64,000 bases of DNA, taken from the NCBI GenBank assembly GCA_964392925.1, contig CAYMRP010000007.1:2214-66213 (forward strand). Reading direction: 5' to 3'. Below the pieces are notes generated by a model. That model ran no database searches, was not told where the DNA came from, and saw only the letters and a program-made list of their open reading frames with translations. Shown piece after piece: positions 30,663 through 49,723 of this stretch. Position 1 is the first letter of the stretch. Every line of letters starts with the position of its first letter. The translations under genes and the position numbers were made by a program. Source of the stretch: an uncultured Gammaproteobacteria bacterium. GTDB taxonomy: Bacteria > Patescibacteriota > Microgenomatia > Daviesbacterales > UBA10151.

Positions 30663-30680
30663 TTAATTAATTCTTAGATT

Positions 30681-32018: not shown

Positions 32019-32291
32019 ATGGATAAAAATAAATATTCAGATAAATATTTCCGGTTAACAAACTTTTACCTAGCTGCCTTTCTATTTTCCAAAGGAATGG
32101 AATTGGTCAATATTGACCGTACCGATCCAAAACGCTCTGAGTTTGTATATTTAGATACCCCTGAAAGAGAACAATTAGTACAGAACTTTAATTTCGCTTC
32201 AGAAGACTCCCCTGAATCATTGGTTGATGTCCGTAAGTTTGTAATGGCGATAAAAATGCTTAAAGACAAGCTGTATCAGGAAAGGTATTGA
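32019..32291 (+). CDS. Hypothetical small protein
   Basis: 90-aa ORF. Confidence 0.35.
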   Translation: MDKNKYSDKYFRLTNFYLAAFLFSKGMELVNIDRTDPKRSEFVYLDTPEREQLVQNFNFASEDSPESLVDVRKFVMAIKMLKDKLYQERY

Positions 32292-32295
32292 AGCG

Positions 32296-33789
32296 ATGGC
32301 AGACGATGAGTATAAAGATTTTGAAAAAAGATTTGAAGCAATACAGGAGCAGCAAAAGAAGCTGCGGTTGGATAAGTTGGAAAAAGAATTTCCACTTCCT
32401 GAGAGGGTTTTACATCTTCAACAGATTCATGCAGAAAAAGAAAAGGAAAAACTTAAGCAAGAATTAGAGCAGGTTGAGGAAGAGCCGCTAGTTGATGTAA
32501 CTCAATTTAAGCCCCTATCCGCGAGTGAGCTATTAAAAACTTTAGGGCTAACTATTAAAAGGGATGAGATAAATAAGCTGATTACTTTTCTTGCTCAACT
32601 GTCAGCCTATACGGAGGATTCCCAGTTAAATATTAGTTTTAACGCGCCGTCAGCATCCGGTAAATCCTATATCCCAACAGAAATTGCCCGGTTATTTCCA
32701 AGTAAAGATGTAATTGAAGTTGCCTATTGTTCACCAACTGCTTTTTTCCATGATTACGGGGAGTTTGATAAAGAAAAAGGCGGTTATATTGTTAATCTTT
32801 CCAGAAAAATTATTATCTTTTTGGACCAACCTCATACACTTCTGCTTCAACATTTAAGACCATTATTGTCGCATGACAACAAAATTATAAGACTTAAGGT
32901 TACTGACAAGTCTCAGAAAAAAGGGCTTCAAACTAAAAATATCTTTTTAATAGGGTACCCAACAGTCATATTTTGCACAGCCGGTTTGAATCTGGACGAA
33001 CAGGAAGCCACCCGATTTTTGCTTTTATCACCTGAAATTAACCAGGAGAAAATTAGAGAAGCAATTTTTGAGAAGATTAGGAAAGAATCGGATTCTGCAA
33101 ATTACAGTCACGAACTAGAGTCCGACCCCGGCAGAATTTCACTAAAAGATAGGATCCTTGCTATTAAGCAGGAAAATATTAAGGAGATTAAAATTGGAAA
33201 TCCGGAACTTGTAAAAAAGTTATTCATTGAGAGAATTAAAATATTCAAACCAAGAAATCAGCGGGATATTGGCAGGGTTATTAGTCTTATCAAAGTTTTT
33301 GCACTGTTTAACTTATGGTTTAGGGAGCGGAATGGTTCTTTAATTAAGGCAAATGATGAAGACATAACAGAGGCTTTTAAAGTCTGGGACGCTATATCCG
33401 AAAGCCAGGAATTAAACTTACCTCCGTTTGTTTATAACCTTTACAAAGATGTTGTAATTGCAGCATACAAGGACAGAAATGGCGAAACTGAGGGAGCAGT
33501 CAAAATTGGTTTAACCCGGTCCGATTTAATGCAAAAGCATTATCAGGTATATGGTAGATTTTTGCCAGATTGGATGTGGAGACAGCAGATTATCCCGCAG
33601 CTAGAAACCGCCGGACTGATTTCCCAAGAGCCGGACCCCACTGATAAAAGAAGAATTTTAGTTTACCCTACTCCTTTACTCACAAATTCCAGAGAACAAA
33701 ACTATAGTGAGTCTGGTGGTGGGGTAGATAGTGAAAAGGCTTTAGAAGACTTAACTAGGGAAATTTTTGAAGTGGAGGAGTCTGAATGA
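32296..33789 (+). CDS. Hypothetical protein with a P-loop-like motif (possible replication/primase-associated ATPase)
   Basis: 497 aa; NISFNAPSASGKSYIPTEIARLF resembles a Walker A; a hydrophobic strand followed by D (IIIFLDQP) could be Walker B; coiled-coil N-terminus. Confidence 0.45.
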   Translation: MADDEYKDFEKRFEAIQEQQKKLRLDKLEKEFPLPERVLHLQQIHAEKEKEKLKQELEQVEEEPLVDVTQFKPLSASELLKTLGLTIKRDEINKLITFLAQLSAYTEDSQLNISFNAPSASGKSYIPTEIARLFPSKDVIEVAYCSPTAFFHDYGEFDKEKGGYIVNLSRKIIIFLDQPHTLLLQHLRPLLSHDNKIIRLKVTDKSQKKGLQTKNIFLIGYPTVIFCTAGLNLDEQEATRFLLLSPEINQEKIREAIFEKIRKESDSANYSHELESDPGRISLKDRILAIKQENIKEIKIGNPELVKKLFIERIKIFKPRNQRDIGRVISLIKVFALFNLWFRERNGSLIKANDEDITEAFKVWDAISESQELNLPPFVYNLYKDVVIAAYKDRNGETEGAVKIGLTRSDLMQKHYQVYGRFLPDWMWRQQIIPQLETAGLISQEPDPTDKRRILVYPTPLLTNSREQNYSESGGGVDSEKALEDLTREIFEVEESE

Positions 33790-33939
33790 GAAAAATTACT
33801 CCTCTAAAGTTCCAGTTTAATTATATAGATAATCCTGATAGTGAAAGTAAAGTTAAGAGTGCCTATAGGAGGATTTTTAATATAGCAAAGCAAAATATTT
33901 TAGAGAGAAGAAAAATAAAGAAGAAAGGAGGAGAAAAAC

Positions 33940-34206
33940 ATGTTACAGGAAATTACATTACACAATTATAAACAACTAAAAAGTTTAATAGATGACTATC
34001 AGTTCGTTGAAAAGCAGCCAATCAAAGCAAAGAAGGATTTTATTCTTTACAAGGTGTTTTGGGTAGATGAATTTGAACCCAAGGAGATTAAAGAAGCTGA
34101 AGTTCTGATTAAAGATTTTAGTGAAGGAGTTTTAAATATGATGTGTAGTGAACCCGGACTCATGAGTGATTTTAGGGAATATATCGAAGATCTTAACGAG
34201 AACTAA
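33940..34206 (+). CDS. Hypothetical small protein
   Basis: 88-aa ORF. The overlapping 61-aa ORF at 33786-33971 is an alternative that I did not call separately. Confidence 0.3.
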   Translation: MLQEITLHNYKQLKSLIDDYQFVEKQPIKAKKDFILYKVFWVDEFEPKEIKEAEVLIKDFSEGVLNMMCSEPGLMSDFREYIEDLNEN

Positions 34207-34217
34207 GAGTGAGATAG

Positions 34218-34448
34218 TTGACAATAATAGTACACAAAAGTACACTAAAGTTAGATATGGATAATACCCAAGAAGAGTATCTAACCCCTGAGCAAGTTGC
34301 TGAAAAACTCAAAGTTAAAAAGATAACCATTTATAGAATGGCAAGAACAGGAAAACTTCCGGCTATAAAATTTGGTAAAAGCTGGAGAATTAACAGTATT
34401 AAATTAGCAGAGTTTTTAGAAAAGGAATCAAATAAAAATGAACGATAA
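34218..34448 (+). CDS. Helix-turn-helix DNA-binding protein, excisionase/MerR-like (candidate recombination directionality factor)
   Basis: 76 aa; LTPEQVAEKLKVKKITIYRMARTGKLPAIKFGKSWRI is a typical excisionase-family HTH; lies immediately upstream of the recombinase and overlaps it. Confidence 0.6.
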   Translation: MTIIVHKSTLKLDMDNTQEEYLTPEQVAEKLKVKKITIYRMARTGKLPAIKFGKSWRINSIKLAEFLEKESNKNER

Positions 34449-36081
34449 TCAAACATCACAACCGCTAATAGCAGCTTTATACGCTCGTGTTTCCACCTCT
34501 AGGCAAGAGGAACAGGAGACTATTGGATCTCAGATTGAGGAGATTAAAGCAAGAATCCTAGCAGATGGGAATGTTTTACCAGCTGAAAACATCTTCCAAG
34601 ATGATGGTTGGACCGGCGAAATGTTACAAAGACCGGGACTGGATGCCATGCGAGATGCAGCTATGGCTGATGCTTTCAAAGTCTTATACGTTTATGACAG
34701 AGGTAGGCTTTCTAGGGTTTTTGCTTACCAAGAAATTATTCTTGAAGAAATAATCAATTTAGATATTAAGTTTGTTACTTTGCACGATGTAAAGGCTGAA
34801 ACTGCTGAGGAAAGAGTATTGCAGGCTATGCAGGGAGTATTTCATGAATATGAGAGGGTAAAGATTGCAGAAAGAATGAGGAGAGGAAAAATGTACAAGG
34901 CAAAAAACAATGTGCTTATTAATGGACACTCATTATATGGATGGAATTACATTAAAAAGACAGATACAAAACCGGCTCATTACACGATTAATGAGGAACA
35001 AGCTAGGGTAGTAAATATGATATTTGAATGGGTAGGTATTGAACAAATTTCTCTCAGAGAGGTCATTAAAAGACTCTATGATAAGGGTGTTAGCCCTAGA
35101 AAAGGTAAAAGTGAATTTTGGACAAAAGGTCCACTGGTTAGGTTATTAGGATGTGAATCTTATGTGACTGGGATTATCCATTACAACAAATCTGAAGCTA
35201 TAGTGGCTAAAAATCCTACAAAACACGATAAGTATAAAAAGGTAAAAAGAAGCAGTAGAAGAGAGAGACCAAGAGAGGATTGGCTGCCGTTTGAAGTCCC
35301 CATCATCTTAGAGGATAAAGAGCTTTTTAACAAAGTCCAGAGAATTTTAGACCACAATAAAAAATATGCTCGCAAGAATAAAAAATATAATTATTTACTC
35401 TCAGGATTAGTATTTTGTGAATGTGGTATTAGAAGAGCTGGTGATGGGGCAAACAGTCATGGACACCACTATTACCGTTGTGCTGAAAGGATTTATACCT
35501 TTCCAGCGAAGAATAAATGCACATCCCCCGGTGTTAATGCTGTTTTATTAGATGGTTTTACTTGGAAACACTTATCTGAATTCTTAACTAATCCACAGGA
35601 GCTGAGGAAACAAGCGGAAAAATACCTTAACTCCCAGAGAGATGATGTAATGCCTGCTCAAGAGTTGGTAAAGTTGGAATCTATAGTTCAGAAAATTGAG
35701 GAAGAAGAAAAAAGATATGCGAAGGCTTATGGTGCCGGGACTTTAGAATTTGAGCAGTATCTGGACTTAATGAAGGATGCCAAAAAGAGGAAAAATGTCC
35801 ATAAAGAACAGTTAAATTTATTGAGTCAAAAAGTTGTTCAAGATGATGTCAGCTCTATAGATGTTGATGAATTGTGTGAAGAGGCAACTAAGGTTTTAAA
35901 GAACATGGACCTGTCTAACAAAATTAAAGTGGTTAGGGATATAATAGACAAGATTATTATCAAAGAAAGGAGCAGTGTTGAAGTATGGGGACATTTACCT
36001 CTATTCAACCAAAAGTTGGGATATGGGACTGAGAGTAGGGATTGTTGGGTTGCCGAATGTGGGGAAATCTACGTTATTTAA
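34438..36081 (+). CDS. Large serine recombinase (resolvase/invertase N-terminal domain, recombinase domain and zinc ribbon)
   Basis: 547 aa; N-terminal ALYARVSTSRQEE with the catalytic Ser and LYVYDRGRLSR; C-terminal Cys cluster CECG...YYRCAER; coiled-coil tail. Confidence 0.8.
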   Translation: MNDNQTSQPLIAALYARVSTSRQEEQETIGSQIEEIKARILADGNVLPAENIFQDDGWTGEMLQRPGLDAMRDAAMADAFKVLYVYDRGRLSRVFAYQEIILEEIINLDIKFVTLHDVKAETAEERVLQAMQGVFHEYERVKIAERMRRGKMYKAKNNVLINGHSLYGWNYIKKTDTKPAHYTINEEQARVVNMIFEWVGIEQISLREVIKRLYDKGVSPRKGKSEFWTKGPLVRLLGCESYVTGIIHYNKSEAIVAKNPTKHDKYKKVKRSSRRERPREDWLPFEVPIILEDKELFNKVQRILDHNKKYARKNKKYNYLLSGLVFCECGIRRAGDGANSHGHHYYRCAERIYTFPAKNKCTSPGVNAVLLDGFTWKHLSEFLTNPQELRKQAEKYLNSQRDDVMPAQELVKLESIVQKIEEEEKRYAKAYGAGTLEFEQYLDLMKDAKKRKNVHKEQLNLLSQKVVQDDVSSIDVDELCEEATKVLKNMDLSNKIKVVRDIIDKIIIKERSSVEVWGHLPLFNQKLGYGTESRDCWVAECGEIYVI

Positions 36082-37173: not shown

Positions 37174-38832
37174 ATGTATTTTGATCAGAGAGGAGCTGTG
37201 CCTTTGCTACTAGCTTTATGCGCAGCCGCACTTCTAGCCTTTTTGGTATTACTATCGATAGTTCCTTTAAAAGATGGTCTACTAAATTCACTTTTTCCTA
37301 AAACTAACTCATATGCAGCAACAAATTTTGTGTCAAATTTTGATGGATTACCGGCTGCTCCGCAACCTTTTTTAGACAGTCCTCAGTCTGCTGACTGGGA
37401 TGTGGCTGTTCATTCACGGGATATTAAAAACTGGCTGCAACTGACTCCTTTTGAAGCACAGCATGGACCGGACTGCGCGCCGCCGATTGATGCAATGGGT
37501 ATGCTGGTAACTCATCATAATGACGGAAGTCATCACAGCGCGGTTTTTAAATGTAAAGATCATTTGATGACAACGATCCGGGCTGGTCTTCATAATGCTC
37601 CGGATGAAGCGACCTCGCAGCCAGGAGAGAATGACGGATATGGGGTAATATATCTGACCCCAAATCAATTGGCAGATTTTAATACTGGTGAAGTAGTCAT
37701 TTCCTGGGAGATGGCAACGCTCCGGACTTCAACCAGAGATTGGGTCGATGTTTGGATTACTCCGTTTGAGGATAACCTGCAGCTGCCGCTCTATGACTGG
37801 CTGCCGGATTTAAATGGCGAACCAAAACGGGCTATTCATATTAATATGAATCAGTTTAATGGTCTGACGACATTTGGAGGAGAGCTGTTTAGTAATTATG
37901 AGCCAATTGGAGTTGAAGAATGCTGGTGGTGTACGCTGGAGGATAAAATGACAACCTCTCCTCAAAAAAGATCTAAGTTTGAACTGCGTCTGAGTAAAAC
38001 TCACCTCAAATTTAGTATGCCCGCGGGTCAGATAGATGTAACAGGTGCGCCAATTAACGGAGGTCAGGAATTGGTTTGGATTGATAGGACATTTGATGCA
38101 CCGCTTGATTGGGGCAGCGGAGTAGTCCAGTTTGGGCATCATTCATATAATCCGTCAAAAGACTGTACTTATAATCCGGCTACTCCGTATAAAACCTGTT
38201 ATGCCAATACCTGGCATTGGGATGCATTCTCGATCTCTAATGCTAAACCATTTACTTTAATTAAGGGCAATAGAAGGTTCGTAGCAAAAGGAATTGGGAC
38301 AGATACAACCGACGTAGTGAGTTTTCCTCAGCCTGCTCCAGCTAATTCATTTTTGCGTTTTAGTGCAATTGGTGTAGTTGAGTATAGTTTAAATAATGGA
38401 CAAACCTATGCAATTGCTCCTTTGCAGCGGGCATCACGGTCTATAGATGGGGTGAGAGGTTTAGGTACGGCTAATAATTATTTTGTTTCCATTCCGCAGG
38501 GAACACAGTCAGTTAAATTCAGACTGAGTGGTGAGGGGTGGTATACGGGGTTTCCTTTGATGGCTAAGGACTTTTCAATCTGGTCTTTATCTTCGCCGGT
38601 GACAGCATCAGTAAACCCAACTTCTTTACCAAGCCAGTTACCTTCGAGCAGTCCCATCCCTTCTGTTAAACCGGGGGATATTGATGGTAATGGCAAAGTT
38701 GACATATTTGACTACAACAGTTTGCTGTCAAACTTCGGAAAAACGGGAACGAATATTCCAGGAGATTATGATAAGAATGGTAAGGTTGATATATTCGATT
38801 TTAATTACTTACTCACAAACTTCGGAAAATAA
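37174..38832 (+). CDS. Secreted protein with a conserved N-terminal signal/anchor and C-terminal dockerin repeats
   Basis: 552 aa; N-terminal DQRGAVPLLLALCAAALLAFLVLLSIVPLKDGLLNSLFPK; C-terminal GDIDGNGKVDIFDYNSLLSNFGK and GDYDKNGKVDIFDFNYLLTNFGK (two Ca-binding dockerin repeats). Confidence 0.6.
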   Translation: MYFDQRGAVPLLLALCAAALLAFLVLLSIVPLKDGLLNSLFPKTNSYAATNFVSNFDGLPAAPQPFLDSPQSADWDVAVHSRDIKNWLQLTPFEAQHGPDCAPPIDAMGMLVTHHNDGSHHSAVFKCKDHLMTTIRAGLHNAPDEATSQPGENDGYGVIYLTPNQLADFNTGEVVISWEMATLRTSTRDWVDVWITPFEDNLQLPLYDWLPDLNGEPKRAIHINMNQFNGLTTFGGELFSNYEPIGVEECWWCTLEDKMTTSPQKRSKFELRLSKTHLKFSMPAGQIDVTGAPINGGQELVWIDRTFDAPLDWGSGVVQFGHHSYNPSKDCTYNPATPYKTCYANTWHWDAFSISNAKPFTLIKGNRRFVAKGIGTDTTDVVSFPQPAPANSFLRFSAIGVVEYSLNNGQTYAIAPLQRASRSIDGVRGLGTANNYFVSIPQGTQSVKFRLSGEGWYTGFPLMAKDFSIWSLSSPVTASVNPTSLPSQLPSSSPIPSVKPGDIDGNGKVDIFDYNSLLSNFGKTGTNIPGDYDKNGKVDIFDFNYLLTNFGK

Positions 38833-38844
38833 ATACGTTCTCTA

Positions 38845-39843
38845 TTAAAGGACAGGTTTTTCGATTGGTTCATAGAAAACGCCTTTGGTTGCGCCGCGTT
38901 TTCTAATTAGGCCAACCTCCTGGAGTTTCTTTAGGTCATATCTCAAAGTTCGTTCATTGATTGCTAAAAATCTCCGGCGGATTTGATCGAAACTAACCAG
39001 AAGTTGGTCTTTAACGATTCTAAAAATTTCGGCTCTTCTTGGAAGTAAATAGTCTTCAGCTTCTAAACTTTGCTTAGCTAGGATTTGAGTTTTTGCTTCC
39101 TCGGCTGATGAAGCTATACATTCCAGCATAAACTCTAGGTAATCTGTGACATCTCGCTCTGAATTTTCAAATCCTTTGTAATAAAGAGTTCTTTGTTTAT
39201 CAAGTTTCTCTTCAATGGAGGATAGTCCTTTCATTCCATAACCGCCTTTAGCTAGAACTGCCTGTAATAATAACCGTCCAACGCGGCCGTTGCCGTCCAG
39301 AAAAGGATGAATTTTTTCGAAAATGTAATGGGCTAGACAGGCTCTGATGGGAATAAAATTCTCTTTAGAGCTATTGGCATAAATCACAAGTTTATTCAGG
39401 AGCGAGCTAATTTGCCGGGGGGGAGGAGGTTGGTATATGGCGATACCGGCCGTATTAAAGATGGCGCTGTTGTCGGTTCTAAATCTTCCTAAATTTTGAG
39501 AGTCGATTAGGCCTTTCATGACTTGATTGTGATAAGACAATAAGTCTTTTTGGGTTAAGTCCTTGGCCGGACGTTCGAAAATTAAATTTATTACTTTTAA
39601 GATGTTGATAATTTCGACTTTTCTTTGATCTTTAGAGGGCAGTCTAACGATATCGTCGGGTCTTAAAGTATTGCCTTCTATGCGGGCTGAAAAAAGAGAA
39701 CTTCTGAGAGTTGATTGTCTTCTAATATTAAGTTCAACTTCAGGCGGGATAGGGAAAGCATCAATGACAGCTTTGGCTGATTCAATTTGGCTTAAAAGCC
39801 CGGATATTTTTGGAGTTAGAACATATTGAGGAGGAATTATCAT
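38845..39843 (-). CDS. Fic/DOC family protein with a C-terminal winged-helix domain
   Basis: 332 aa; Fic motif HPFLDGNGRVGRLL; C-terminal wHTH-like IRRRFLAINERTLRYDLKKLQEVGLIRKRG. Confidence 0.8.
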   Translation of the reverse strand: MIIPPQYVLTPKISGLLSQIESAKAVIDAFPIPPEVELNIRRQSTLRSSLFSARIEGNTLRPDDIVRLPSKDQRKVEIINILKVINLIFERPAKDLTQKDLLSYHNQVMKGLIDSQNLGRFRTDNSAIFNTAGIAIYQPPPPRQISSLLNKLVIYANSSKENFIPIRACLAHYIFEKIHPFLDGNGRVGRLLLQAVLAKGGYGMKGLSSIEEKLDKQRTLYYKGFENSERDVTDYLEFMLECIASSAEEAKTQILAKQSLEAEDYLLPRRAEIFRIVKDQLLVSFDQIRRRFLAINERTLRYDLKKLQEVGLIRKRGATKGVFYEPIEKPVL

Positions 39844-40018
39844 TGATTGCCCAATGTTACCAGATAATTCCTAATGTTGCCAAATAATTCCTAATACTAT
39901 TAATGTAGGGACACCACAAATTTGTGGTGTCCACAAATTGTGGTGTTTTGTGCGTAAGTTGTGGTGTTTGTGGAGAAAGAAGATGGGTCCACAAATGGTT
40001 TGTGGTGACCACATTAGT
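39844..40018. promoter_or_regulatory. fic upstream region carrying three inverted-repeat operators and a direct repeat
   Basis: Perfect 24-nt palindrome GGACACCACAAATTTGTGGTGTCC (39909-39932). Then CCACAAATTGTGGTG, then TCCACAAATGGTTTGTGGTGA. Tandem ATAATTCCTAAT x2 at 39867-39895. Confidence 0.5.
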
Positions 40019-40330
40019 TTAGGTTGAATCTTTTTTTGGTTTACTTATACCCATAAGTTGATTTGCTCTTTTTCTGGCATTTTCTCCTGCGACAATAAAT
40101 GCTCCACCGCACGCAATATTAAATGTAAATAGAGCTAGATATGGGATGCTGCGTTCAGGATCTTGAGGGAAATTAGCGACCAACTCCCTATAAGGTCTAA
40201 TAGAGCTTATTACTGCAGCTATCGGTCCTAAAACGCCTACGACGTTTGCGGTTGTCTCAAGATAGAGAAATGTAAGTTTGCCTGTTCTTTTTCTTAGTGG
40301 ATGAGGAGTTTCAGACTGCTTTTCAGGCAT
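40019..40330 (-). CDS. Small hypothetical membrane protein
   Basis: 103 aa with two hydrophobic segments; its start overlaps the otsAB stop by 8 nt. Confidence 0.4.
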   Translation of the reverse strand: MPEKQSETPHPLRKRTGKLTFLYLETTANVVGVLGPIAAVISSIRPYRELVANFPQDPERSIPYLALFTFNIACGGAFIVAGENARKRANQLMGISKPKKDST

Positions 40331-42521
40331 TGGTTAAATCTCCCAGGAGCGCCAGAGTGTCTTTAACGCTTTTTATCCGGTATTTGGCATTGCTTTCGTC
40401 TGGGCCTAGTTTGATAGTAAAGGCTTTTTCAGGTAAGGCTTGGAAGAGATGTTCATCTGTAACGTCATCTCCCATCGCCAGATAGAAATCATATTTTTTC
40501 TTTGAGACCCAAGATCTGGCAGAAGAACCTTTATTAATTGATTTACTTTTAATCTCAATAATTTTTGAGCCTTTCATAATTTCTAAATCGGTATTTTGAA
40601 TAGCGAGTTCCAACTCATCCATCAAATCGGGCAGCTGTTGGTCGACGAGTTCCATAGATGATTGGCGGTAATGAAAAGCGAGTGAATAATTTTTTCTTTC
40701 AATTAATGATTTAGGAATCCTTTCGGTGAATTTTGTTAGAATTTCATCGACGTTTTGCATCCAATCAGTTTGGAGGCCCTTGGCTGGTTGGAAATAATAT
40801 TCGTTTCGGGGTTTGACCCAAATGCCGTGCTCGGCAACGAGAGCGATTTTAGGGATTTTGATCCACTTGTTCAAAGAATCTTTGTCACGGCCAGAGAGAA
40901 TGACTATCTCGTTTTTAAAATCATCAGCAAGTTTCTTTAAAAGAGTTATTAATTCCTTTGGCGGTTTAGCGTCTGAGTAAACTGGAGCATAAGGAACGAG
41001 TGTGCCGTCATAATCTAAAATTATCAGACGGCGTTCAGCTTTTCTGTAATCTGTTTGGAGTTTTTTGAGATTATCTTTCTCCATTATATCGACCAGGGGT
41101 TTTTTAAATGAGGAATTAGAAATATCAATCAACTTTTCGATCCAGGAATCAGTCCATTTTCTAGCAGTGAAATGAGAAACTATAGAATGCATCTGTTTGA
41201 TTCTTTTGGCTTGCTCAGGAGCTTTCATTTGAATGGCTTGAGAAATGGCTGAGGCAATTTCGTTAGGATCGTTAGGATTAATCATTAATGCTTGAGTTAA
41301 TTCGCGGGCAGAACCGGCTGTTTCGGAAAGAATTAAAACCCCATCCTGACTTATGCCTTTGGCGGCAATAAATTCTTTGGAGACTAAATTCATGCCATCT
41401 CTTAAAGGAGTAATAAGAGCGATGTCAGTTGCTAAATAACGGACAACCATTTCGTCAAAAGATAAGGAGTTAAACTGGTAGATTATGGGAGTCCAATCAA
41501 CTGTGGCGAAGCGACTGTTTGTTCGTCCAACAATTTTGTCTACTTCATTTTTTAGGTCTTGATAATCATCGATTTCAATTCTGGATGGCTGAGTATTTAG
41601 AATTAATGTAACTTTCTTATGGGATTTTGGATTAAGTTCTAAGAATTTTTCATAGCCTAATAAGCGATTTGCAATGCCTTTAGTGTAATCAAGACGGTCG
41701 ACTGAAAAAAGAATTTTTTGGCCTTTGAATAAATTTTTCAGTTCAAGAGCCTTCTTTTGAACTATTTTACTATCGATGGCTTTTTGATATTTATCAAAAT
41801 TAATACCTAATGGCATGTTTTCTATGACGACGGGTCTTGAATCAAGATAAAGGGTTTTAGAGACTGGTTTAATGCCTGTTGTTTTAGTGGCACTTTCTAA
41901 GAAGTGCTGCATGTAGTCATTGGTATGAAAGCCGACTAAATCGGATCCAAGAATACCCTCGATGAGGCTGGTTCTAACATCTTCCGGCAGAACCCGCAAA
42001 AGTTCAAAAGATGGAAATGGGATATGAAGGAAAAAGCCGATTGTTGATGTAGGTTGAGCCTCTCTTAACATTTGAGGCAGAAGCATAAGTTGATAATCCT
42101 GAATAAATATTAAGTCACCAGGTTTATATATCTTAAGAATCTCCTGGGCAAAGAGCTTGTTAACGGATTTATAATCGTCCCAAAATTCTTTGTTATAAGA
42201 GGATTTATCAGAAAAATAATGAAAAAGAGGCCAGATAGTTTTATTTGAGAATCCTAAGTAATGATTATCGATTTGCTTCTGAGATAAGAAAACAGGCAAA
42301 CTTTCGTATTTAGAGTAGAGTTCTTTTGAGAGTTTAGGCTGCAGTTTCTTAGAGATTTGTTTGCCTGGCCAACCGATCCAGACAGAGCCCATTTTGGATG
42401 AGGAATCTTTTAGTCCAGAAACAAGACCGCCCGGACTGGCTTTATATTCAAATTTGCCTTTAGCTTCAGATATTTCAACAGGCAGTCTATTAGCAACTAT
42501 GAGTAAACGCATAGTGCGCAT
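40323..42521 (-). CDS. otsAB: Bifunctional trehalose-6-phosphate synthase (GT20) / trehalose-6-phosphate phosphatase (HAD)
   Basis: 732 aa; N-terminal MRLLIVANRLPVE...GGLVSGL...VWIGWPG typical of OtsA; C-terminal HAD module LIILDYDGTLVPY ... LAMGDDVTDE typical of OtsB. Confidence 0.85.
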   Translation of the reverse strand: MRTMRLLIVANRLPVEISEAKGKFEYKASPGGLVSGLKDSSSKMGSVWIGWPGKQISKKLQPKLSKELYSKYESLPVFLSQKQIDNHYLGFSNKTIWPLFHYFSDKSSYNKEFWDDYKSVNKLFAQEILKIYKPGDLIFIQDYQLMLLPQMLREAQPTSTIGFFLHIPFPSFELLRVLPEDVRTSLIEGILGSDLVGFHTNDYMQHFLESATKTTGIKPVSKTLYLDSRPVVIENMPLGINFDKYQKAIDSKIVQKKALELKNLFKGQKILFSVDRLDYTKGIANRLLGYEKFLELNPKSHKKVTLILNTQPSRIEIDDYQDLKNEVDKIVGRTNSRFATVDWTPIIYQFNSLSFDEMVVRYLATDIALITPLRDGMNLVSKEFIAAKGISQDGVLILSETAGSARELTQALMINPNDPNEIASAISQAIQMKAPEQAKRIKQMHSIVSHFTARKWTDSWIEKLIDISNSSFKKPLVDIMEKDNLKKLQTDYRKAERRLIILDYDGTLVPYAPVYSDAKPPKELITLLKKLADDFKNEIVILSGRDKDSLNKWIKIPKIALVAEHGIWVKPRNEYYFQPAKGLQTDWMQNVDEILTKFTERIPKSLIERKNYSLAFHYRQSSMELVDQQLPDLMDELELAIQNTDLEIMKGSKIIEIKSKSINKGSSARSWVSKKKYDFYLAMGDDVTDEHLFQALPEKAFTIKLGPDESNAKYRIKSVKDTLALLGDLTNA

Positions 42522-42620
42522 TATACATGAGAAGTGGGAATTGAAACACTATCGGATAGTTTGTAAGATTAATGTAAGAAGGTAATTGACAGCAGATTGT
42601 GGAAATGAATTAATAATATA

Positions 42621-45371
42621 ATGTTGAAAATTTTCCAGCATAATCAAAAAGGAGCTGTTCCTTTGCTGATGCTTGTTGCTTCAATTGGGATTGTGGCAGT
42701 ATTAATTATTTATAATATTGCTCCTTTTAAAGATAAGATTTTAGCTTCTATATTTCCTAAAGATTTTACTTTTGCGGCAGGGGGGCCAGATGTTTTAAAT
42801 TTTTCACAAATAACCCAGACCCCTCAGAAAAATAAAAAGGTTGAATTTACTTTTGATCTCTCAACAACTTATCAAAATCCATATTACTATTATGATGATT
42901 CTGATACTCCAGCAGCTAATCCGAGTAATACTTCCTTCTTCGGCCGAGACGGTGTGACCGTAGATATAAATTTAACCTCTCCTTCTGGTAAGGCTATTAA
43001 AGTCCCAGCATTTTGGATGGAGGACTATACAAGAGTACAAAACAGTGGTTTTGAAGTTTTAGGAAAGAAGGATAATGGGAAATGGTTAGTTCGTTTTACC
43101 CCAACTGAGGTTGGAAGTTATAACTATTACGTATCTACTGAAGATAAAAATGGTACAGCCAGGTACCCTATTAGTGGGGCACAATCATTTAGTGTGAGTG
43201 ATTCTCAGAATAAAGGATTTATTCGAACAAGCGCAGCTGATCCAAGATTTCTCGAGTACGATAATGGGGAATCTTTTATTCCTATTCCTTCTGGTCATCA
43301 ATGGTGGAAAAACAGTGGTTTAAGAAGTTATGAGTATGAAAATCTGTTCACTAGTTTTAGTCAGAATGGAATAAATTTGACCAGAATTTGGTCAATTGCT
43401 GATTTTGCTTTAGCAATTGAAGATGCAAGTCCAGTATGGATTAGGCAAGGTTTTTCAAATCCTGGTGGGGCGTTAGGGGTTGAGATCAATAGTGCAAATG
43501 TACATTCTGGAATTCGATCGGCGCGTCCGGGAGTTGGACAGGGATGGTATCAAAGGATCGCTTTTACCACACTAAATCAGCCTCACAAATTAACAGCCTG
43601 GATAAAAACAGATTCGGTATCAGGTGGAAATGCTCAGATCAACATAAAAACAGGGACTACTTTTAACACTGGAACTACAGTTGCGCAATTACCAAATGTA
43701 ACTGGAACGACAGGATGGTCCCAGTATTCAGTAACGTTCACTCCCACCTCTAGTGTTGCAAGTATTAATTTATTCTTAAGCGGAGGGACAGGGACTGCTT
43801 ATATCGACGATATTGTTGTAGGGCCGACTGATCAGAACGGAGTTATTACATATAATATTATATCGGACCCTGGCATGGAGAGGCATTTTGCTAAAGATCT
43901 GGCCGGTAATGATCCGAATGCCGATCCAAATTTGGCACGTCCGATTGGTAACTTTCTCAATCAGTGGATGGCATACGATCTGGATAAGATTGTTGAATCT
44001 GCTGAGATAAACGGAGTAGCAATTCAGCTATGTGCTTGTTCAGGTCCATGGTTTACCTGGCAGCAGAATCCTGATAATACCAACTATGCAGACTCTTGGG
44101 CTTTAAAAAATTGGCAGCGTAATTATCGATACCAGATAGCTAGATGGGGATATTCACCAGCTATTTTGGCTTGGGAGAAGCATAATGAGCACGGCCATAT
44201 ACCAGTCGGATCAGCCTTATATTCTTTCTATCAAAATCTTGGGGCTTATCAGAAAGCGAATGATCCATATCAGCACCTTAGAACAACCTCTCAAGGCTCT
44301 CAGACTTTTTCGCCAGGTCTTTGGTCTTCAAATGGGTTTGATTTAGCGAATTATCATGACTATATGATGAGTTTCCGTCCAGCTGCTTTATATAATGATG
44401 AGGTAAATTTCATTTCTAAATACTCATGGTGTTTGTCAGACAGCATGAAACGTTCTAACTCCCCCTATTGCTCAGGTTTAGGATTAGGTGATGGATCAGT
44501 ATGGCAAGGAGCTTTAAAACCTTGGGTTTGGGGAGAACTTGATGTTGGTACGGATATTTGGAATGTAGCAAATCCTGCGACGTTGAATGGTTCGAATAGA
44601 GTTAACCTTTTGCACAACTTTATTTGGGCAGGATTGTTTAATCCACTGGGCACTGTAGGTATTGATTGGTATTGGGATAATGAAGATGCTTCAACGATCG
44701 CAGCTAAATATGCAGCGAAAAAAGCTGCTTCGAATTTTTTCAACGGTGTTAATTATGCAGGAGCTAATTTTACTTTCTTGACGAGTTCTTCTGATGCAGC
44801 ACCTGGTTATACGGGTGAAACTATTAGTGTATCTGATCCTAAAGCAAGGACTTATGCAATGAGGAGTTCTAATAAAAAAAGCGCATATGTTTGGGTACAG
44901 AATAGAGATAATGTATGGTCTAAGTACCCAGCTCTTCCAGCAGCTATAAGTCCGACTGTATCTTTGAGTAATCTACTAAATGAAGCTTATACTGTTGAGA
45001 TTTGGAATACATTTAGCGGGACTGTGATTTCCAGCAGCCAGCAGGTGCCCAGCGCTGGAACCATATCAATAAGCCTTCCGAGCATGACTCAAGACTATGC
45101 GATAAAAATAATTTCGAATTCTTCAGTAGCTCCAAGCCCAAGTCCTAGCATTTCGGCATCAGTAGCTCCCAGCCCATCAGCATCTATTTTTCCAAGTCCT
45201 TCTATGAAGCCCGGAGATATAGATGGTAATGGTGCAGTTGATATATTTGATTACAACACGTTGCTAACTAATTTTGGTAAAACTGGATCCGGTATTTTGG
45301 GAGACATTGATAGTAATGGTGTTGTTGATATATTTGACTATAACCTGATTTTGACTAACTATGGAAAATAA
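42621..45371 (+). CDS. Large secreted protein with a conserved N-terminal signal and C-terminal dockerin repeats
   Basis: 916 aa; N-terminal NQKGAVPLLMLVASIGIVAVLIIYNIAPFKDKILASIFPK; S/P-rich linker; GDIDGNGAVDIFDYNTLLTNFGK and GDIDSNGVVDIFDYNLILTNYGK. Confidence 0.6.
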   Translation: MLKIFQHNQKGAVPLLMLVASIGIVAVLIIYNIAPFKDKILASIFPKDFTFAAGGPDVLNFSQITQTPQKNKKVEFTFDLSTTYQNPYYYYDDSDTPAANPSNTSFFGRDGVTVDINLTSPSGKAIKVPAFWMEDYTRVQNSGFEVLGKKDNGKWLVRFTPTEVGSYNYYVSTEDKNGTARYPISGAQSFSVSDSQNKGFIRTSAADPRFLEYDNGESFIPIPSGHQWWKNSGLRSYEYENLFTSFSQNGINLTRIWSIADFALAIEDASPVWIRQGFSNPGGALGVEINSANVHSGIRSARPGVGQGWYQRIAFTTLNQPHKLTAWIKTDSVSGGNAQINIKTGTTFNTGTTVAQLPNVTGTTGWSQYSVTFTPTSSVASINLFLSGGTGTAYIDDIVVGPTDQNGVITYNIISDPGMERHFAKDLAGNDPNADPNLARPIGNFLNQWMAYDLDKIVESAEINGVAIQLCACSGPWFTWQQNPDNTNYADSWALKNWQRNYRYQIARWGYSPAILAWEKHNEHGHIPVGSALYSFYQNLGAYQKANDPYQHLRTTSQGSQTFSPGLWSSNGFDLANYHDYMMSFRPAALYNDEVNFISKYSWCLSDSMKRSNSPYCSGLGLGDGSVWQGALKPWVWGELDVGTDIWNVANPATLNGSNRVNLLHNFIWAGLFNPLGTVGIDWYWDNEDASTIAAKYAAKKAASNFFNGVNYAGANFTFLTSSSDAAPGYTGETISVSDPKARTYAMRSSNKKSAYVWVQNRDNVWSKYPALPAAISPTVSLSNLLNEAYTVEIWNTFSGTVISSSQQVPSAGTISISLPSMTQDYAIKIISNSSVAPSPSPSISASVAPSPSASIFPSPSMKPGDIDGNGAVDIFDYNTLLTNFGKTGSGILGDIDSNGVVDIFDYNLILTNYGK

Positions 45372-47835
45372 AGAATTTAACCAAAAAGGTGCTGTGCCGT
45401 TGATGATTTTGGCAGCAATAGCAGGAATTATTGTTGTTATGGGTATAAGTGTTATAGCGCCTTTTAGGGATGATCTCTTTTATAGTTTATTTCCTAAATC
45501 AGCATCAAATGCAGCCATCGAAGAGTGGGTGCAGGACGGACATGACTCTCAGCGAACAGGGTCTACTACGGAAGAAGCAGTGTTGCCCTGGACTTTTTTA
45601 TGGTCATTCAACGGACCTGACGCAAGCGGATCTGCCTCCGGTCATTTTTATGATGCACCAAAAGAAGCGCGGACTGTAACAGGTAATTCTCAGATTTATG
45701 TGCCTGCAGGTGCCAGAGGATTGTACGCACTACGAAGAAGTGATGGTACTCAAGCGTGGAATATAACAAATACTGCTTTTAACGCTGCACCAGCTTATGA
45801 TTCTGCAAATCAGTTGTTATTAGCGGGTGGGGCTGATGGTCAGATATATAAGATCAATTCGAATACGGGTAGTATTCTGGCAACTTACAATACAGGAAAC
45901 CCGATTAATAAAGCTTTGCTGCTTGATGGTGGATTTGTTTATGCGGTTTCTGATAATGGGACACTAAATAAAGTCAGTATATCTAACTTTTCTTCAGTTT
46001 GGAGTTACTCAGCCGGGTCGAGTGCTGCGACACTAGTGTCTTATTCGCCAAGCAGAGACATCTTAATTTATGCAACAGCAGATCTAAATGTGCATGCAGT
46101 GAATAACAGTAATGGAGTATTGAAATGGAAGGTTAAGCCAACCCCAAATAACCCAGGTGATACTTCAGTTGCAGCTACTCAAACTGCAAGTGGGGCGAAG
46201 GTTGGTACCCAGTTTGATTTTGGCTGGCCTGTTATTGCAGAGAATAATGGTGTGGTTTTTGTACGACTGCAGCTACCTCATCAGGGTTTATATGAAGGTC
46301 CTAATAGTGGTAGGTGGGGAAATACAAATGCCGAAAACAGAACATGGCTGGCTCAAAATCCGCAATGGAAAAACTTGTTTGCCTTGAATTTGGATAGTGG
46401 TGCCGAGAAATTTATACCGGCAGTTGGATACGGTAGTACAGAGGATTTTGTCCCTTCATTGAATTCAGTTTATGGTGTTATGGGGTCTCAGCCCGTTGTT
46501 AAAGTTTATCCAGACGGGACAGAAGTTGTCTATATTCATTTTAGAAACGGTCAAACAACTCCGGCTTCAGATTATCGCTGGTCCGGTCATATGGGGGAGA
46601 TGGTTCTAAATGATTCAACCATACCAGGGATGGCCGCAGGCGATTTGAGGTTTGTTAGGATGGGTAATTATGCAGGATATGGGGGGACAGCTCCTGTTCA
46701 TATTATAGATGAACAAACTCCGCTAAGTATGGCGGGAAATATGCTGATTAATGCTCATTGGGCGGGAAGTATGGGGGTAAAAATTACTGATAGAGGTGTT
46801 ACTAAAGGTTTAACTTATTCAAACCCGATAGAGACTTCTAAATTGCCAACCGTTGTTAGGGCGCAAAAATCATGTGCAAATTTTAACCCGGTAACTCATT
46901 ACACTACATGTTCTTTAAACTATGTTACAGATGGAGGCAGGTATATGGATGGACCTGGTTTTTGGGGGTATTGGAATGTAGCTGATCCACCAGGATGGAG
47001 GATAGGAGTGCCGACAGCTGTGGGGGGAGCTTATTCTGCAGGGTTTTTGCCAAGATACACTTATGTGTCGGGAGGTCAGGTCGTAGTTGAAGGTAATGGG
47101 GGAGAATTGCTGGTATTCCAGCACAGTGGGAGCGCTGCCATCGCAAGTCCGAGCCCCTCTGCATCTGTAGCGGTACAGCCCTCTATATCTCCTTCCCCTT
47201 CAGTTCAGCCAGCTCCCTCAGCATCGGCTCAATCCTCTGCGAGTCCCTCATCTATTGAGACTATTGACAGTACTGATTCAAGGATTGTTTTTGACGGATG
47301 GTTTCCAACAGTAACAGGCTCAAGCATGATAGGAGGAAGTGAAAGAGTTGGGGAATTTGGGGGCACAAGTATAACAATTCCTTTTACAGGTAATTCTATA
47401 ACGTGGATCTATACACAGGATTTGAATAGGGGACAGGCTCAGGTTTTTATGGATGGGGTGTTGGTTAGAACTGTAGATCAGTATGGCGGTCTGCAATATG
47501 GAACGGAAGAGGTATTTAATGTAACTCAGGGAAGTCATACGCTCAGAATAGTTGTTACCAGAGTAAAACAAACAGCTTCAACAGGATTTTTAGCAGGAGT
47601 TGATGCTTTTAGGGTGACTCAAAATCTACCTTCGCCCACACCTACACTAGCTGCTTCTCCGAGCCCTGCAAAGTCCGGAGATCTTGATGGTAATAACACT
47701 GTCGATATATTTGATTACAATTTATTACTAACTAATTTTGGCAGAACTGGAGCTAATATTCCGGGAGATGCAGATAGTAACGGGAAAGTTGATATTTTTG
47801 ATTATAATATTGTGTTAACTAACTTTGGGAAGTAA
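45361..47835 (+). CDS. Secreted PQQ-like beta-propeller repeat protein with C-terminal dockerin repeats
   Basis: 824 aa; N-terminal NQKGAVPLMILAAIAGIIVVMGISVIAPFRDDLFYSLFPK; repeated G.LYA....DG...W / DG.IY.IN..TG motifs like PQQ/BamB propellers; Ser/Pro linker; GDLDGNNTVDIFDYNLLLTNFGR and GDADSNGKVDIFDYNIVLTNFGK. Confidence 0.6.
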   Translation: MENKEFNQKGAVPLMILAAIAGIIVVMGISVIAPFRDDLFYSLFPKSASNAAIEEWVQDGHDSQRTGSTTEEAVLPWTFLWSFNGPDASGSASGHFYDAPKEARTVTGNSQIYVPAGARGLYALRRSDGTQAWNITNTAFNAAPAYDSANQLLLAGGADGQIYKINSNTGSILATYNTGNPINKALLLDGGFVYAVSDNGTLNKVSISNFSSVWSYSAGSSAATLVSYSPSRDILIYATADLNVHAVNNSNGVLKWKVKPTPNNPGDTSVAATQTASGAKVGTQFDFGWPVIAENNGVVFVRLQLPHQGLYEGPNSGRWGNTNAENRTWLAQNPQWKNLFALNLDSGAEKFIPAVGYGSTEDFVPSLNSVYGVMGSQPVVKVYPDGTEVVYIHFRNGQTTPASDYRWSGHMGEMVLNDSTIPGMAAGDLRFVRMGNYAGYGGTAPVHIIDEQTPLSMAGNMLINAHWAGSMGVKITDRGVTKGLTYSNPIETSKLPTVVRAQKSCANFNPVTHYTTCSLNYVTDGGRYMDGPGFWGYWNVADPPGWRIGVPTAVGGAYSAGFLPRYTYVSGGQVVVEGNGGELLVFQHSGSAAIASPSPSASVAVQPSISPSPSVQPAPSASAQSSASPSSIETIDSTDSRIVFDGWFPTVTGSSMIGGSERVGEFGGTSITIPFTGNSITWIYTQDLNRGQAQVFMDGVLVRTVDQYGGLQYGTEEVFNVTQGSHTLRIVVTRVKQTASTGFLAGVDAFRVTQNLPSPTPTLAASPSPAKSGDLDGNNTVDIFDYNLLLTNFGRTGANIPGDADSNGKVDIFDYNIVLTNFGK

Positions 47836-47881
47836 ATCTTCTTATTGACGAGTTTTACCCCTCGGCGTTAATGTAAATATA

Positions 47882-49723
47882 ATGAATAAATCTCTCAATT
47901 ATTCTGCAGTCTTTTGCTGGGCTATTAGCATAATTACTATTTTAATTACATTCTCAGTTATTACAAGAAGTGTCACAGCAGCCTCACCATATAACCTTGG
48001 AGATGCGGATGGGGATATGGATGTAGATATTTTTGACTACAATATTATACTAACTAATTTTAACAGAGTTTATAACGACGCTGACTTTGATGGGAATGGA
48101 CTTATAGATATTTTTGATTACAATGTAGTGTTATCAAACTTTTCTAAAAAATATATGGCTGCTTCTGCTATGCCTTCGGGACATCACATGGGGGATGATT
48201 CAATGGCAATGATGGCATGGAGACATGGGGGGAAGAATTCTCCAAATCCCAATTATGATAAATGTGATGATGGTACTGATATAGTAACAGCCCATAATCA
48301 GTATTATGTCATTGCTTATGACGGGATCAAGTATCCGACCTGGCATCCTCCGGTAGTTGATAACCCAATCACAGGAGTAGGGAAGTGTTATTTTGGTCAC
48401 GAGCATGGCACAAATCCTTCTAACTATATTTATTACCAGGAAATAGTTGAACACTTTGGTAAAGACATTGATCATGACGGACAGATTACTGCTTTTAGTG
48501 TTTCTTCAGCAGGCACTATTACTCCAGGCGACCACGCTGGACTACCGTTTGGTATCGCAAATGAGCATATGGACAAATATTACAATCAGGAAGGACGAGA
48601 TTCAGTATTTGTCCGTCATGAAGATCATGTTGGTCATAAAGTAGAATTAGTGAATTATGAATCAGAAATGGTAGGAAATACTACTCATCCGATGGCTCAG
48701 CTTGCTGGGACAAAGGGGGTTAATATTCCATATTATCAGTCTGGTACAGAAACATATAATCCAACAGGGGTAACTTGTACCCACTTACATAAATTCCATC
48801 AAGGGACTCATTCAGCTGACGCTGTTTTAAATAATCTGCACGAAGTAATATTTCATTCCAATTGTTCAAGCGTGGATGTAAATGGTATTAATGCTCCTGC
48901 ATATTATCCTAACAACACAGTAATTTTGAATGGAATGATGACCTTTGGTAATCCGGGTATTTATAAAAGATTTTGCGGACGTAAGCGGGATGAGCAGATT
49001 TGCGGTTTAAATGGGACAAATCTCAGTACTACCGCCGGGGCGACATGTACATTAACCGACCCGTTGTTAAGCAGACTTCCAAATAGTGTTTACAGTAATA
49101 CTTTAGGCCGTAATATGACTGATAAGTTCTGTTTAGAGCATGTAGAGGATCCGGGATATGGAATTTCTGAAGGAAGTCCTTATTTTACCCCCTATGAAAT
49201 TTGGGAAGGCGATTTAAGAATTACGACCCCATCTGGAGATATGCTTGCTGAACATGGAAGACAATGGGATGTTCTCGATCCGGTTAGAATTATTGATATT
49301 GGTTATCAGCACCCTACCAGAACATGGCAAAAAGATTATCAATTTACTTCAGAAGTTTGTGATACATTATTAACAAAACCAGGCACGAATATCAGAAGGA
49401 CATTGGGCTGCGATCAGGGTAATAAGGCATATGATTCCCCACAATCAAGCTTTAAAGGCCTAAAACGAACAACCTACTTTGGGCGAAACAGGGTGTCGAA
49501 TCCCGGAGGAGCGCAAATCTGGTGGACAGATCCACTTGGGGGGAATGCCACAACAAGTGAAACTACATCAGGGCTGAAACAAAGAATTACTCCGGTAGAA
49601 GCAGACATACAAAGAGTTCAAAGCAGAATACAACAGGTTGTAGGTTCTAACCGCTTTTTAAATGATCGGGCAATCCAGCGTTTATTTAGTAGTGGCGGTG
49701 GAACAGTCCATGTTCCAAATTAA
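47882..49723 (+). CDS. Secreted protein with N-terminal dockerin repeats
   Basis: 613 aa; signal peptide, then GDADGDMDVDIFDYNIILTNFNR and DFDGNGLIDIFDYNVVLSNFSK directly after the signal; His/Cys-rich remainder. Confidence 0.55.
   Translation: MNKSLNYSAVFCWAISIITILITFSVITRSVTAASPYNLGDADGDMDVDIFDYNIILTNFNRVYNDADFDGNGLIDIFDYNVVLSNFSKKYMAASAMPSGHHMGDDSMAMMAWRHGGKNSPNPNYDKCDDGTDIVTAHNQYYVIAYDGIKYPTWHPPVVDNPITGVGKCYFGHEHGTNPSNYIYYQEIVEHFGKDIDHDGQITAFSVSSAGTITPGDHAGLPFGIANEHMDKYYNQEGRDSVFVRHEDHVGHKVELVNYESEMVGNTTHPMAQLAGTKGVNIPYYQSGTETYNPTGVTCTHLHKFHQGTHSADAVLNNLHEVIFHSNCSSVDVNGINAPAYYPNNTVILNGMMTFGNPGIYKRFCGRKRDEQICGLNGTNLSTTAGATCTLTDPLLSRLPNSVYSNTLGRNMTDKFCLEHVEDPGYGISEGSPYFTPYEIWEGDLRITTPSGDMLAEHGRQWDVLDPVRIIDIGYQHPTRTWQKDYQFTSEVCDTLLTKPGTNIRRTLGCDQGNKAYDSPQSSFKGLKRTTYFGRNRVSNPGGAQIWWTDPLGGNATTSETTSGLKQRITPVEADIQRVQSRIQQVVGSNRFLNDRAIQRLFSSGGGTVHVPN

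Follow-up and report, generated by a model that had tools for sequence, protein, structure and literature searches.

A long N-terminal export signal predicted for secreted dockerin proteins of Daviesbacteria-type Microgenomates

A 64-kb stretch of contig CAYMRP010000007.1 (positions 2,214 to 66,213, forward strand; hereafter the window) encodes four large proteins with paired dockerin repeats, P1 to P4, three of which (P1–P3) share an N-terminal module of ~47–52 residues. This module is probably an extended Sec-type signal peptide that is specific to Daviesbacteria-type Microgenomates and is probably cleaved by type I signal peptidase (SPase I), a reading to which we assign a probability of about 0.6. 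It would comprise a short basic n-region (N-Q-K/R-G), a hydrophobic helix of membrane-spanning length (~24 residues) that includes a conserved Gly, an amphipathic juxtamembrane segment whose sequence is conserved (P-F-K-D-x-L-F-x-x-L-F/Y-P-K), and a c-region, x-x-S-x-A↓A (the arrow denotes the predicted cut), at which type I signal peptidase would most likely act.

The module would export a subset of the exoproteome that includes large enzymes, lectins, proteases, Ig-repeat proteins, and cohesin and dockerin proteins, with the envelope housekeeping proteins of the same genome using short ordinary signals instead. Once exported, the ectodomains of P1–P4 would be kept together or on the cell by Ca-dependent dockerin–cohesin binding, and the cohesin partners, if present at all, would be encoded elsewhere in this genome with the same signal. 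The sequences directly show the motif, its wide occurrence among proteins, its restriction to one lineage, selection on the peptide, its interchange with ordinary signals, and the presence of cohesin genes in relatives; that the proteins are exported, that SxA↓A is cut, that the juxtamembrane segment forms an amphipathic helix, and that the dockerins bind cohesins is inferred from them.

The N-terminal module of P1–P3

The P1 module (coordinates 37174–37317, forward strand, residues 1–48) begins with DQRG and continues through the hydrophobic helix and VPLKDGLLNSLFPK to TNSYA↓A, with a predicted cut between A48 and A49; it matches the module hidden Markov model (HMM) with an E-value of 3.8e-18. 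Those of P2 (42621–42776, forward strand, residues 1–52) and P3 (45361–45513, forward strand, residues 1–51) both begin with NQKG, and after the hydrophobic helix they continue with APFKDKILASIFPK and DFTFA↓A (P2, predicted cut A52/A53) or with APFRDDLFYSLFPK and SASNA↓A (P3, predicted cut A51/A52). The predicted mature proteins following SxA would start with ATNFVSNFDGLPAAPQPF in P1, AGGPDVLNFSQITQTPQK in P2, and AIEEWVQDGHDSQR in P3.

When all six frames of the window were searched with the regular expressions [QKR][KR]G[AS][VIL]P[LIVM] and S[ILV]FPK, each gave three matches, and these correspond exclusively to the N-termini of P1–P3. Alignment of the three N-termini shows an invariant Q, G-A-V-P-L, I.P..D, S.FPK, and AA. 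The initial annotation had noted that three of the four proteins share an N-terminal motif, and that its conservation exceeds what a generic signal peptide needs, and both observations hold. It had also noted the absence of Glu at position +5 after the Gly, and the residue there is Leu in P1–P3.

The DNA encoding the conserved motifs differs synonymously among the three window copies, and across the loci described below every one of the four codons for Gly, for Ala, and for Pro, and each of the six for Leu, is used at conserved positions; selection thus acts on the peptide. A recent gene conversion or DNA copying event behind the shared N-termini is ruled out by the synonymous differences together with the full codon diversity across loci.

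Distribution of the module among proteins and genomes

We built a search profile from the N-termini of P1–P3 and of a P2 orthologue with 78% identity. An exhaustive search of 1.84 billion representative proteins with this profile identified 480 cluster representatives at E≤1e-3, among which the E-values of such a short and partly hydrophobic profile may admit false positives, and 71 at E≤1e-10. The best 150 matches all contain the full motif, located within the first ~90 residues of proteins ranging from 54 to 1202 aa. With the N-terminal profile in a local hmmsearch the window proteins score 100–115 bits, and protein P0002 scores 51 bits.

In a logo of 153 sequences, N7 (75%), Q8 (84%), K/R9 (71%), and G10 (100%, among best hits that are biased by the profile) are followed by x x P/H L/I L L/I L x, and the hydrophobic positions 11–34 include the pattern A x x G22 (87%) x x x F L x I S S x A P. 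Beyond the helix are F35 (89%), K/R36 (92%), D/N37 (89%), x L F/L S x L F/Y, P45 (89%), and K46 (99%), and the c-region reads x x S49 (92%), x, A51 (99%), A/S52 (96%). Conservation ends at position 52, i.e. at SxA↓A, with none beyond, and the overall consensus is NQKG, a 24-residue hydrophobic helix, PFKDxLFxxL(F/Y)PK, and xxSxA↓A. Pro is never found at +1 of A51, and at an upstream pseudo-site just after the helix (SSxA33) Pro is the next residue in 61% of the modules. The hydrophobic positions 35, 39, 40, 43, and 44 have helical periodicity, and the juxtamembrane segment is therefore predicted to form an amphipathic helix.

The proteins carrying the module have mutually unrelated ectodomains. 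Among 70 long members the passenger domains include bacterial Ig domains (Big_7, 9), subtilases with pro-domains (Peptidase_S8, 8), Dockerin_1 (8), NHL (5), Malectin (4), and Cohesin (3), and there are also glycoside hydrolase (GH), Kelch, PQQ, and cupredoxin domains. Lectins are likewise among the 480 clusters.

To survey genomes we used a degenerate DNA pattern for FK(D/N)xLFxxL(F/Y)PKxxSxA, with the Gly excluded, against 185,579 GTDB species, each represented by a single genome; we estimate its sensitivity from the logo to be ~40%. A total of 46 stretches matched (numbered with the prefix L where they are referred to individually). Nine of the matched metagenome-assembled genomes (MAGs) are titled Candidatus Daviesbacteria, and ten are ENA third-party assemblies titled ‘uncultured Gammaproteobacteria’ (including CAYOMO01, CAZJNI01, CAZDEH01, CAYUPO01, and CAZWRN01); other matches include one titled ‘Patescibacteria group’ and one titled only ‘bacterium’. 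A 1.6-kb contig in a Dehalococcoidales bin encodes a true member and is probably misbinned, and a match in a Clostridia MAG is a chance hit at 17 bits. There were no matches in Woesebacteria, Roizmanbacteria, or any other named lineage among the 185,579 species scanned. MAGs with more than one copy have 2–7 module open reading frames (ORFs) in the DNA examined, often in tandem.

Three of the ten ‘Gammaproteobacteria’ assemblies, CAYOMO01, CAZWRN01, and CAYUPO01 (the MAGs that contain L007, L021, and L029), are syntenic with the window and encode proteins 69–97% identical to those in it. Since these three share synteny and close homologues with the window, and all ten carry the module, the title is almost certainly a placeholder. 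The nearest named relatives of the window proteins are in Microgenomates of the candidate phyla radiation (CPR), and the window is AT-rich, with a GC content of 35–43%. The source of the window is thus probably itself a Daviesbacteria-type Microgenomate.

The suggestion that this is a lineage-specific signal is thus upheld: the protein library contains 480 clusters with the module, and the genomes matched in the scan are essentially all MAGs of the Daviesbacteria type. The initial annotation had set this against an ordinary SPase I site with no conservation past the three paralogs; an S-x-A↓A site of ordinary appearance is indeed present, and the conservation extends far more widely than the paralogs.

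Besides housekeeping genes, two kinds of gene recur next to module genes in the 46 loci. One encodes a multi-pass membrane protein of ~550 aa, PAS/histidine-kinase-like by eye, and adjoins a module gene in eight MAGs (L014, L016, L017, L025, L036, L042, L046, and L048); the other encodes a small cupredoxin-like protein (~150 aa) and does so in five.

Signal function and alternative explanations

The module has the basic n-region and hydrophobic h-region expected of a Sec signal, the latter being ~24 residues long, and its end satisfies the –3/–1 rule, with S49 and A51 followed by Ala or Ser. Exported proteins encoded elsewhere in the window, among them DUF2207, YkuD, and BNR/fn3/LysM proteins, have h-regions of 13–17 residues and AxA-type sites, and the module thus marks a subset of the exoproteome.

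Module and ordinary signals replace one another among orthologues. P0190, an orthologue of P4, has a module ending in FPIDKSFA↓ASPYNPGDADGD whereas P4 of the window has an ordinary signal ending in ITRSVTA↓ASPYNLGDADGD, and a further orthologue, P0191, has a decayed module ending in DSAFA↓ASPYNAGDADGD; despite these different signals all three have an equal predicted mature start, ASPYN.GDADGD. Similarly, in P2 orthologues of other bacteria that have ordinary Sec signals (P0003, P0005, and others) the predicted mature start is 23–25 residues before FDLS, and a cut at A52↓A53 would place the mature start of P2 within 1–2 residues of theirs. We favor a cleavable extended Sec signal because conservation ends at SxA↓A, the module is interchangeable with ordinary signals, the predicted mature ends of P2 and its orthologues match, and ordinary signals coexist with the module.

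Several points weigh against this interpretation. An h-region is usually 7–15 residues long with the SPase I site 3–7 residues past it, whereas here the site is ~17 residues past a 24-residue helix, which is atypical for SPase I substrates; a helix of this length might just as well serve as a permanent signal-anchor. P45 and K46 are near-invariant at –7/–6 and are not required by SPase I, hinting at another recognition partner, and removal of the module at SxA↓A is a sequence-based prediction. The taxonomy is taken from record titles, and about half of the MAGs are titled ‘uncultured Gammaproteobacteria’, which are probably placeholders. As to dockerin–cohesin binding, the window dockerins score below the Pfam cut-off, and a cohesin was not found within the 64-kb window.

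Were the module an uncleaved signal-anchor, the 24-residue helix would stay in the membrane as an N-terminal tether with type II topology, the amphipathic segment would lie on the outer surface, and SxA-A would be the start of a flexible linker. The helix is of transmembrane length, about twice that of the ordinary signals in the window, and is far from SxA↓A, and the presence of a cohesin domain directly after the module in some proteins would suit a membrane-adjacent anchor for dockerin proteins. However, the prevalence of Ser and Ala at –3 and –1 and the lack of Pro at +1 fit a cleavage site, dockerin-bearing enzymes would need no second anchor, and the one-for-one swap with short cleavable Sec signals in orthologues yields the same mature N-terminus; we regard the signal-anchor as somewhat unlikely. 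A class III (type IV prepilin-like) signal, in which prepilin peptidase would cut after Gly10 and the helix would be retained as a pilin-like stem, as for the bindosome proteins of Sulfolobus, was raised by the initial annotation from the basic–Gly–hydrophobic start. There is indeed a K/R-G before the helix, with the Gly present in 100% of the best 150 matches, and two conserved residues, Gly (+12) and Pro (+24), are reminiscent of G14 and P22 of pilins. Type IV pilins also exist in the lineage: L001 encodes a canonical one (949–1473; GFTLIELL, PF07963) ~3 kb upstream of a P2 orthologue, and true class III signals thus coexist with the module. But the resemblance does not survive closer comparison, as +5 is Leu in 82% and never Glu, and +3 is Pro or His in 90%. 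Moreover, ~15% of the modules found independently of the Gly lack NQKG while keeping a basic n-region, the helix, and PFKD..LFPK..SxA (L012, L014, L018, L022, L027, L036, L037, L040, L042, and L048), and there is no match to PF07963, TIGR02532, or NCBIfam prepilin models on the N-termini even at E≤10. The strongest conservation follows the helix, in a region not read by prepilin peptidase, and the module is interchangeable with Sec signals. A class III signal is thus very improbable.

The near-invariance of F35, P45, and K46, which a general SPase I does not explain, could also reflect a dedicated sorting or processing system that would read PFKDxLFxxLFPK, either as an N-terminal counterpart of sortase or exosortase systems or through a peptidase resembling that of SipW-TasA. 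The module does mark a defined subset of the exoproteome, with ordinary signals present alongside it in the genome, and its occurrence is strictly limited to a single lineage. Against this, clustering of ORFs in the 46 loci revealed no peptidase, sortase, or candidate enzyme recurring beside module genes, and there is no candidate among the window ORFs scanned, in which neither signal peptidase, prepilin peptidase, nor sortase was detected; we consider such a system quite unlikely. It is conceivable, if unlikely, that the module serves as the tag recognized by a Daviesbacteria-specific sorting pathway, in which a specialised peptidase or transpeptidase at the outer membrane face would deliver a set of enzymes, adhesins, and cohesin/dockerin proteins to a surface layer or host-contact site; no other sorting system exclusive to one CPR lineage would then be known.

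Dockerin repeats

The repeat pattern D.[DN].[DN]..[VIL][DN]..D has eight matches in a six-frame search of the window, all within P1–P4 and two in each ORF. The dockerins are C-terminal in P1 (38668–38829; repeats GDIDGNGKVDIFDYNSLLSNFGK and GDYDKNGKVDIFDFNYLLTNFGK), P2 (45207–45368; two repeats), and P3 (47671–47832; two repeats), and directly follow the signal peptide in P4 (47996–48151; repeats GDADGDMDVDIFDYNIILTNFNR and ADFDGNGLIDIFDYNVVLSNFSK), all on the forward strand, an arrangement that agrees with the initial annotation. All eight repeats fit the EF-hand-like Ca-loop pattern of type I dockerins (PF00404), in which two tandem segments of ~22 residues each combine such a loop with a helix, and the window consensus is GDxDGNGKVDIFDYNxLLTNFGK.

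Three of the four dockerins score 20.4, 18.5, and 15.2 bits with Dockerin_1, against a gathering cut-off of 22.9, and the P4 copy is undetected. Homologues and other module proteins pass this threshold at 23–34 bits (best E-value 5e-10), and many P4 homologues match PF00404. A profile of the repeats and their relatives matches the solved dockerins 8x3a, 2y3n_B (4.1e-9), 2yik, 4fl4_A, 2ccl_B, 1ohz_B, 5nrm_B, and CelS 1daq, which rank clearly ahead of calmodulin EF-hands. The dockerin in the AlphaFold2 model of P4 superimposes on Bacteroides cellulosolvens 2y3n_B over 54 columns with a template modelling (TM) score of 0.80 and a root-mean-square deviation of 1.5 Å. Because of the profile matches, the superposition of the P4 model, and the homologues above the Pfam threshold, we accept the window repeats as predicted dockerin modules of a distinctive subtype (VDIFDYNxLLxNFGK).

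Cohesins in related genomes and the YchF–rpsF slot

No cohesin was detected in the window either by Pfam, among the ORFs scanned, or by a local cohesin HMM applied to every ORF of at least 50 aa, in agreement with the initial annotation. Orphan Ca-binding modules, which the dockerins would have been according to that annotation if the genome had no cohesin-like partner, they are not in the lineage as a whole: related MAGs encode cohesins above the Pfam cut-off in proteins with the module. PF00963 matches of 30–47 bits (cut-off 24.1) directly follow the module in two proteins of L007, two of L029 (one with a CBM60), and one of L046, as well as in P0065, P0149, and P0129. A dockerin forms the other end of several such cohesin proteins, and the local cohesin HMM identifies two proteins of L021 as closely homologous to the L007 pair. 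The cohesin and dockerin proteins of the lineage thus appear to share one export route.

The position of these genes corresponds to that of the P1–P4 cluster. The window order is recombinase, YchF, the segment containing P1, fic, otsAB, P2, P3, and P4, and then rpsF and ssb. L007 has YchF followed by two cohesin/dockerin genes, rpsF, and ssb, and L021 has a serine recombinase (97% identical to that in the window), YchF, and two cohesin/dockerin genes, whereas in L029 YchF is followed by a P1 orthologue (86% identity), one further gene, and two cohesin genes. As the same YchF–rpsF slot contains cohesin genes in L007, with YchF-adjacent ones also in L021 and L029, the cluster lies within an exoprotein island of variable content, which in sister genomes contains the cohesin part of the system.

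In L029, the gene that separates the P1 orthologue from the two cohesin genes (2932–5043, reverse strand) encodes a secreted BNR/sortilin-like protein with fn3 and LysM domains and an ordinary signal. L049 encodes a P4 orthologue, next to it a paralogue of the P1 family, and then an ORF whose start is cohesin-like by eye.

Ectodomains of P1–P4

The four forward-strand ORFs have the lengths (552, 916, 824, and 613 aa) and the exact coordinates initially reported. P1 (37174–38832; 552 aa) consists of the module, a predicted ConA-like beta-sandwich ectodomain, a Ser/Pro linker, and the C-terminal dockerin. Ten aligned homologues all have the module and most have the same type of dockerin, and the motifs HGPDC, RDWVD.WITP, HHSYNP.KDC, and NTWHWD are conserved. 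In a Foldseek search against the PDB the AlphaFold2 model (predicted local distance difference test, pLDDT, 69.5; predicted TM score, pTM, 0.68) matches L-type lectins and GH16 glucanases at E ~1e-5 with a TM score (target) of ~0.5, and the modelled ectodomain resembles a ConA-like lectin/glucanase fold.

P2 (42621–45371; 916 aa) has the module, a DUF5060 Ig-like domain, a weak CBM4_9-like stretch, a putative glycoside-hydrolase core, a Ser/Pro linker, and the C-terminal dockerin. The DUF5060 domain scores 33.9 bits and matches PDB entry 9gmj (‘DUF5060 domain-containing protein’) with an E-value of 3.3e-24, and the distant P2 homologue P0025 carries PF00150 (GH5). P3 (45361–47835; 824 aa) contains the module, a PQQ/BamB-type beta-propeller, a Ser/Pro/Ala linker, a weak CE2_N/CBM-like beta-sandwich (PF17996, E 0.0036), and the C-terminal dockerin. 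The propeller, already recognized in one member of the cluster by the initial annotation, scores 55.5 bits with PF13360 (cut-off 27.6), and the P3 orthologue on L001 retains the module. The stop of P2 and the start of P3 overlap by 11 nt (45361–45371), and in P0019 and P0023, from other Microgenomates-type genomes, a PQQ-propeller and P2-like regions are fused in one protein; the overlap and fusions together suggest that P2 and P3 are functionally linked and act together.

P4 (47882–49723; 613 aa) has an ordinary Sec signal (residues 1–33), the N-terminal dockerin, and a conserved His/Cys-rich domain of ~510 aa. It belongs to a large Microgenomates family of secreted proteins, with at least 1550 homologues, many of them with PF00404 and named ‘dockerin type I repeat-containing protein [Candidatus Woesebacteria]’. 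The core (residues ~100–613) has invariant His/Cys/Glu/Asp motifs (FGHEHG, RHEDHVGHK, HKFHQG, and NNLHE) and matches no Pfam family, and Foldseek with the AlphaFold2 model (pLDDT 88.3, pTM 0.80) gives no PDB match to it at E<0.3, the matches being to dockerins only. The P4 core may represent a new metalloenzyme fold.

Relationship to known systems

CPR/Patescibacteria are uncultured and have tiny genomes, and their surface and secreted proteins, about which standard predictors and family libraries reveal little, are thought to mediate host attachment and polymer degradation. Conceptually the module is nearest to family-specific signal peptides such as YSIRK-G/S of Gram-positive surface proteins or ESPR of autotransporters, and it may also be compared with KxYKxGKxW of serine-rich adhesins; all are long, conserved N-terminal export signals with a signal-peptidase-type end that are found on many unrelated proteins of one lineage, next to ordinary signals in the same genomes. 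The architecture differs, however, as the extra motif of these signals is in or before the n/h-region, whereas here a 12-residue amphipathic segment is situated between the helix and the site, and the sequences are not similar: the YSIRK, ESPR, and KxYKxGKxW models in Pfam and NCBIfam do not match the N-termini at E≤10. With type IV prepilin and Sulfolobus bindosome class III signals the module has in common a basic residue and Gly before a helix of ~20 residues on large extracellular proteins, but it differs in the lack of the +5 Glu, the Gly-less members (~15%), the absence of an N_methyl match, the post-helix peak of conservation, and the interchange with Sec signals.

The dockerins and cohesins invite comparison with the cellulosomes of Clostridia and Ruminococcus and with non-cellulosomal modules, which also have duplicated EF-hand-like dockerins on glycan-active proteins. 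Cohesins above the Pfam threshold are present in the relatives, some together with a dockerin, in an adaptor-like arrangement, or with a CBM60. In contrast to cellulosomes, there are at most two cohesins per protein with no multi-cohesin scaffoldin seen, neither an SLH nor a sortase anchor could be recognized, and the predicted system belongs to a CPR bacterium with a small genome. Dockerin-bearing, putatively glycan-active proteins are encoded in the window, and proteins of one or two cohesins were found only in relatives.

Neither Pfam-A (2025) nor NCBIfam 20.0 contains a model for the module, and a full-text literature search (signal peptide, dockerin/cohesin/Microgenomates, DUF5060) turned up no account of the module and none of a cohesin–dockerin system in Daviesbacteria; a dockerin-domain protein has been noted in a Saccharibacterium (PMC10633639).

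The module provides a sequence handle for a special Daviesbacteria exoproteome of hundreds of clusters, including the P1 and P4 families of unknown function. It also presents a mechanistic puzzle, with a membrane-length helix and an invariant FPK segment ahead of the predicted cleavage site, and generic signal-peptide tools may misread module proteins as N-terminally anchored membrane proteins.

Neighboring genes and other regions of the window

The interval between P1 and P2 contains fic, a small membrane ORF, and an otsAB fusion on the opposite strand, and the cluster is thus interrupted as initially described. The Fic-domain protein (38845–39843, reverse strand; PF02661, 71 bits) has a C-terminal winged helix and lies outside the secretion system; it also matches the PADLOC SoFic anti-phage model near full length (E 3.2e-49, positions 47–345 of 361). 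The OtsA–OtsB fusion (40323–42521, reverse strand) combines trehalose-6-phosphate synthase (PF00982, E 6.6e-144) and phosphatase (PF02358, E 2.9e-46). A promoter and terminator scan of 36.8–50.4 kb gave counts equal to those of shuffled sequences, and transcription units were not delimited.

To the left of the cluster is a mostly unannotatable block of genes (19379–36081) that ends in a large serine recombinase (34438–36081) beside YchF, the recombinase whose counterpart in the corresponding position of L021 shares 97% identity with it. The block encodes a 1290-aa AAA_5 protein (23556–27428) and a 1071-aa transglutaminase/VWA protein (27447–30662) and has no PADLOC hits; it may be either an element that has integrated here or an island that is conserved. 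Further left, a PIF1/RecD-like helicase (10823–12139, reverse strand) has moderate matches to PADLOC candidate-defence models (PDC-S68 and RecD_like), and 16815–18431 encodes a secreted BNR/sortilin-like protein with fn3 and LysM domains and an ordinary signal peptide.

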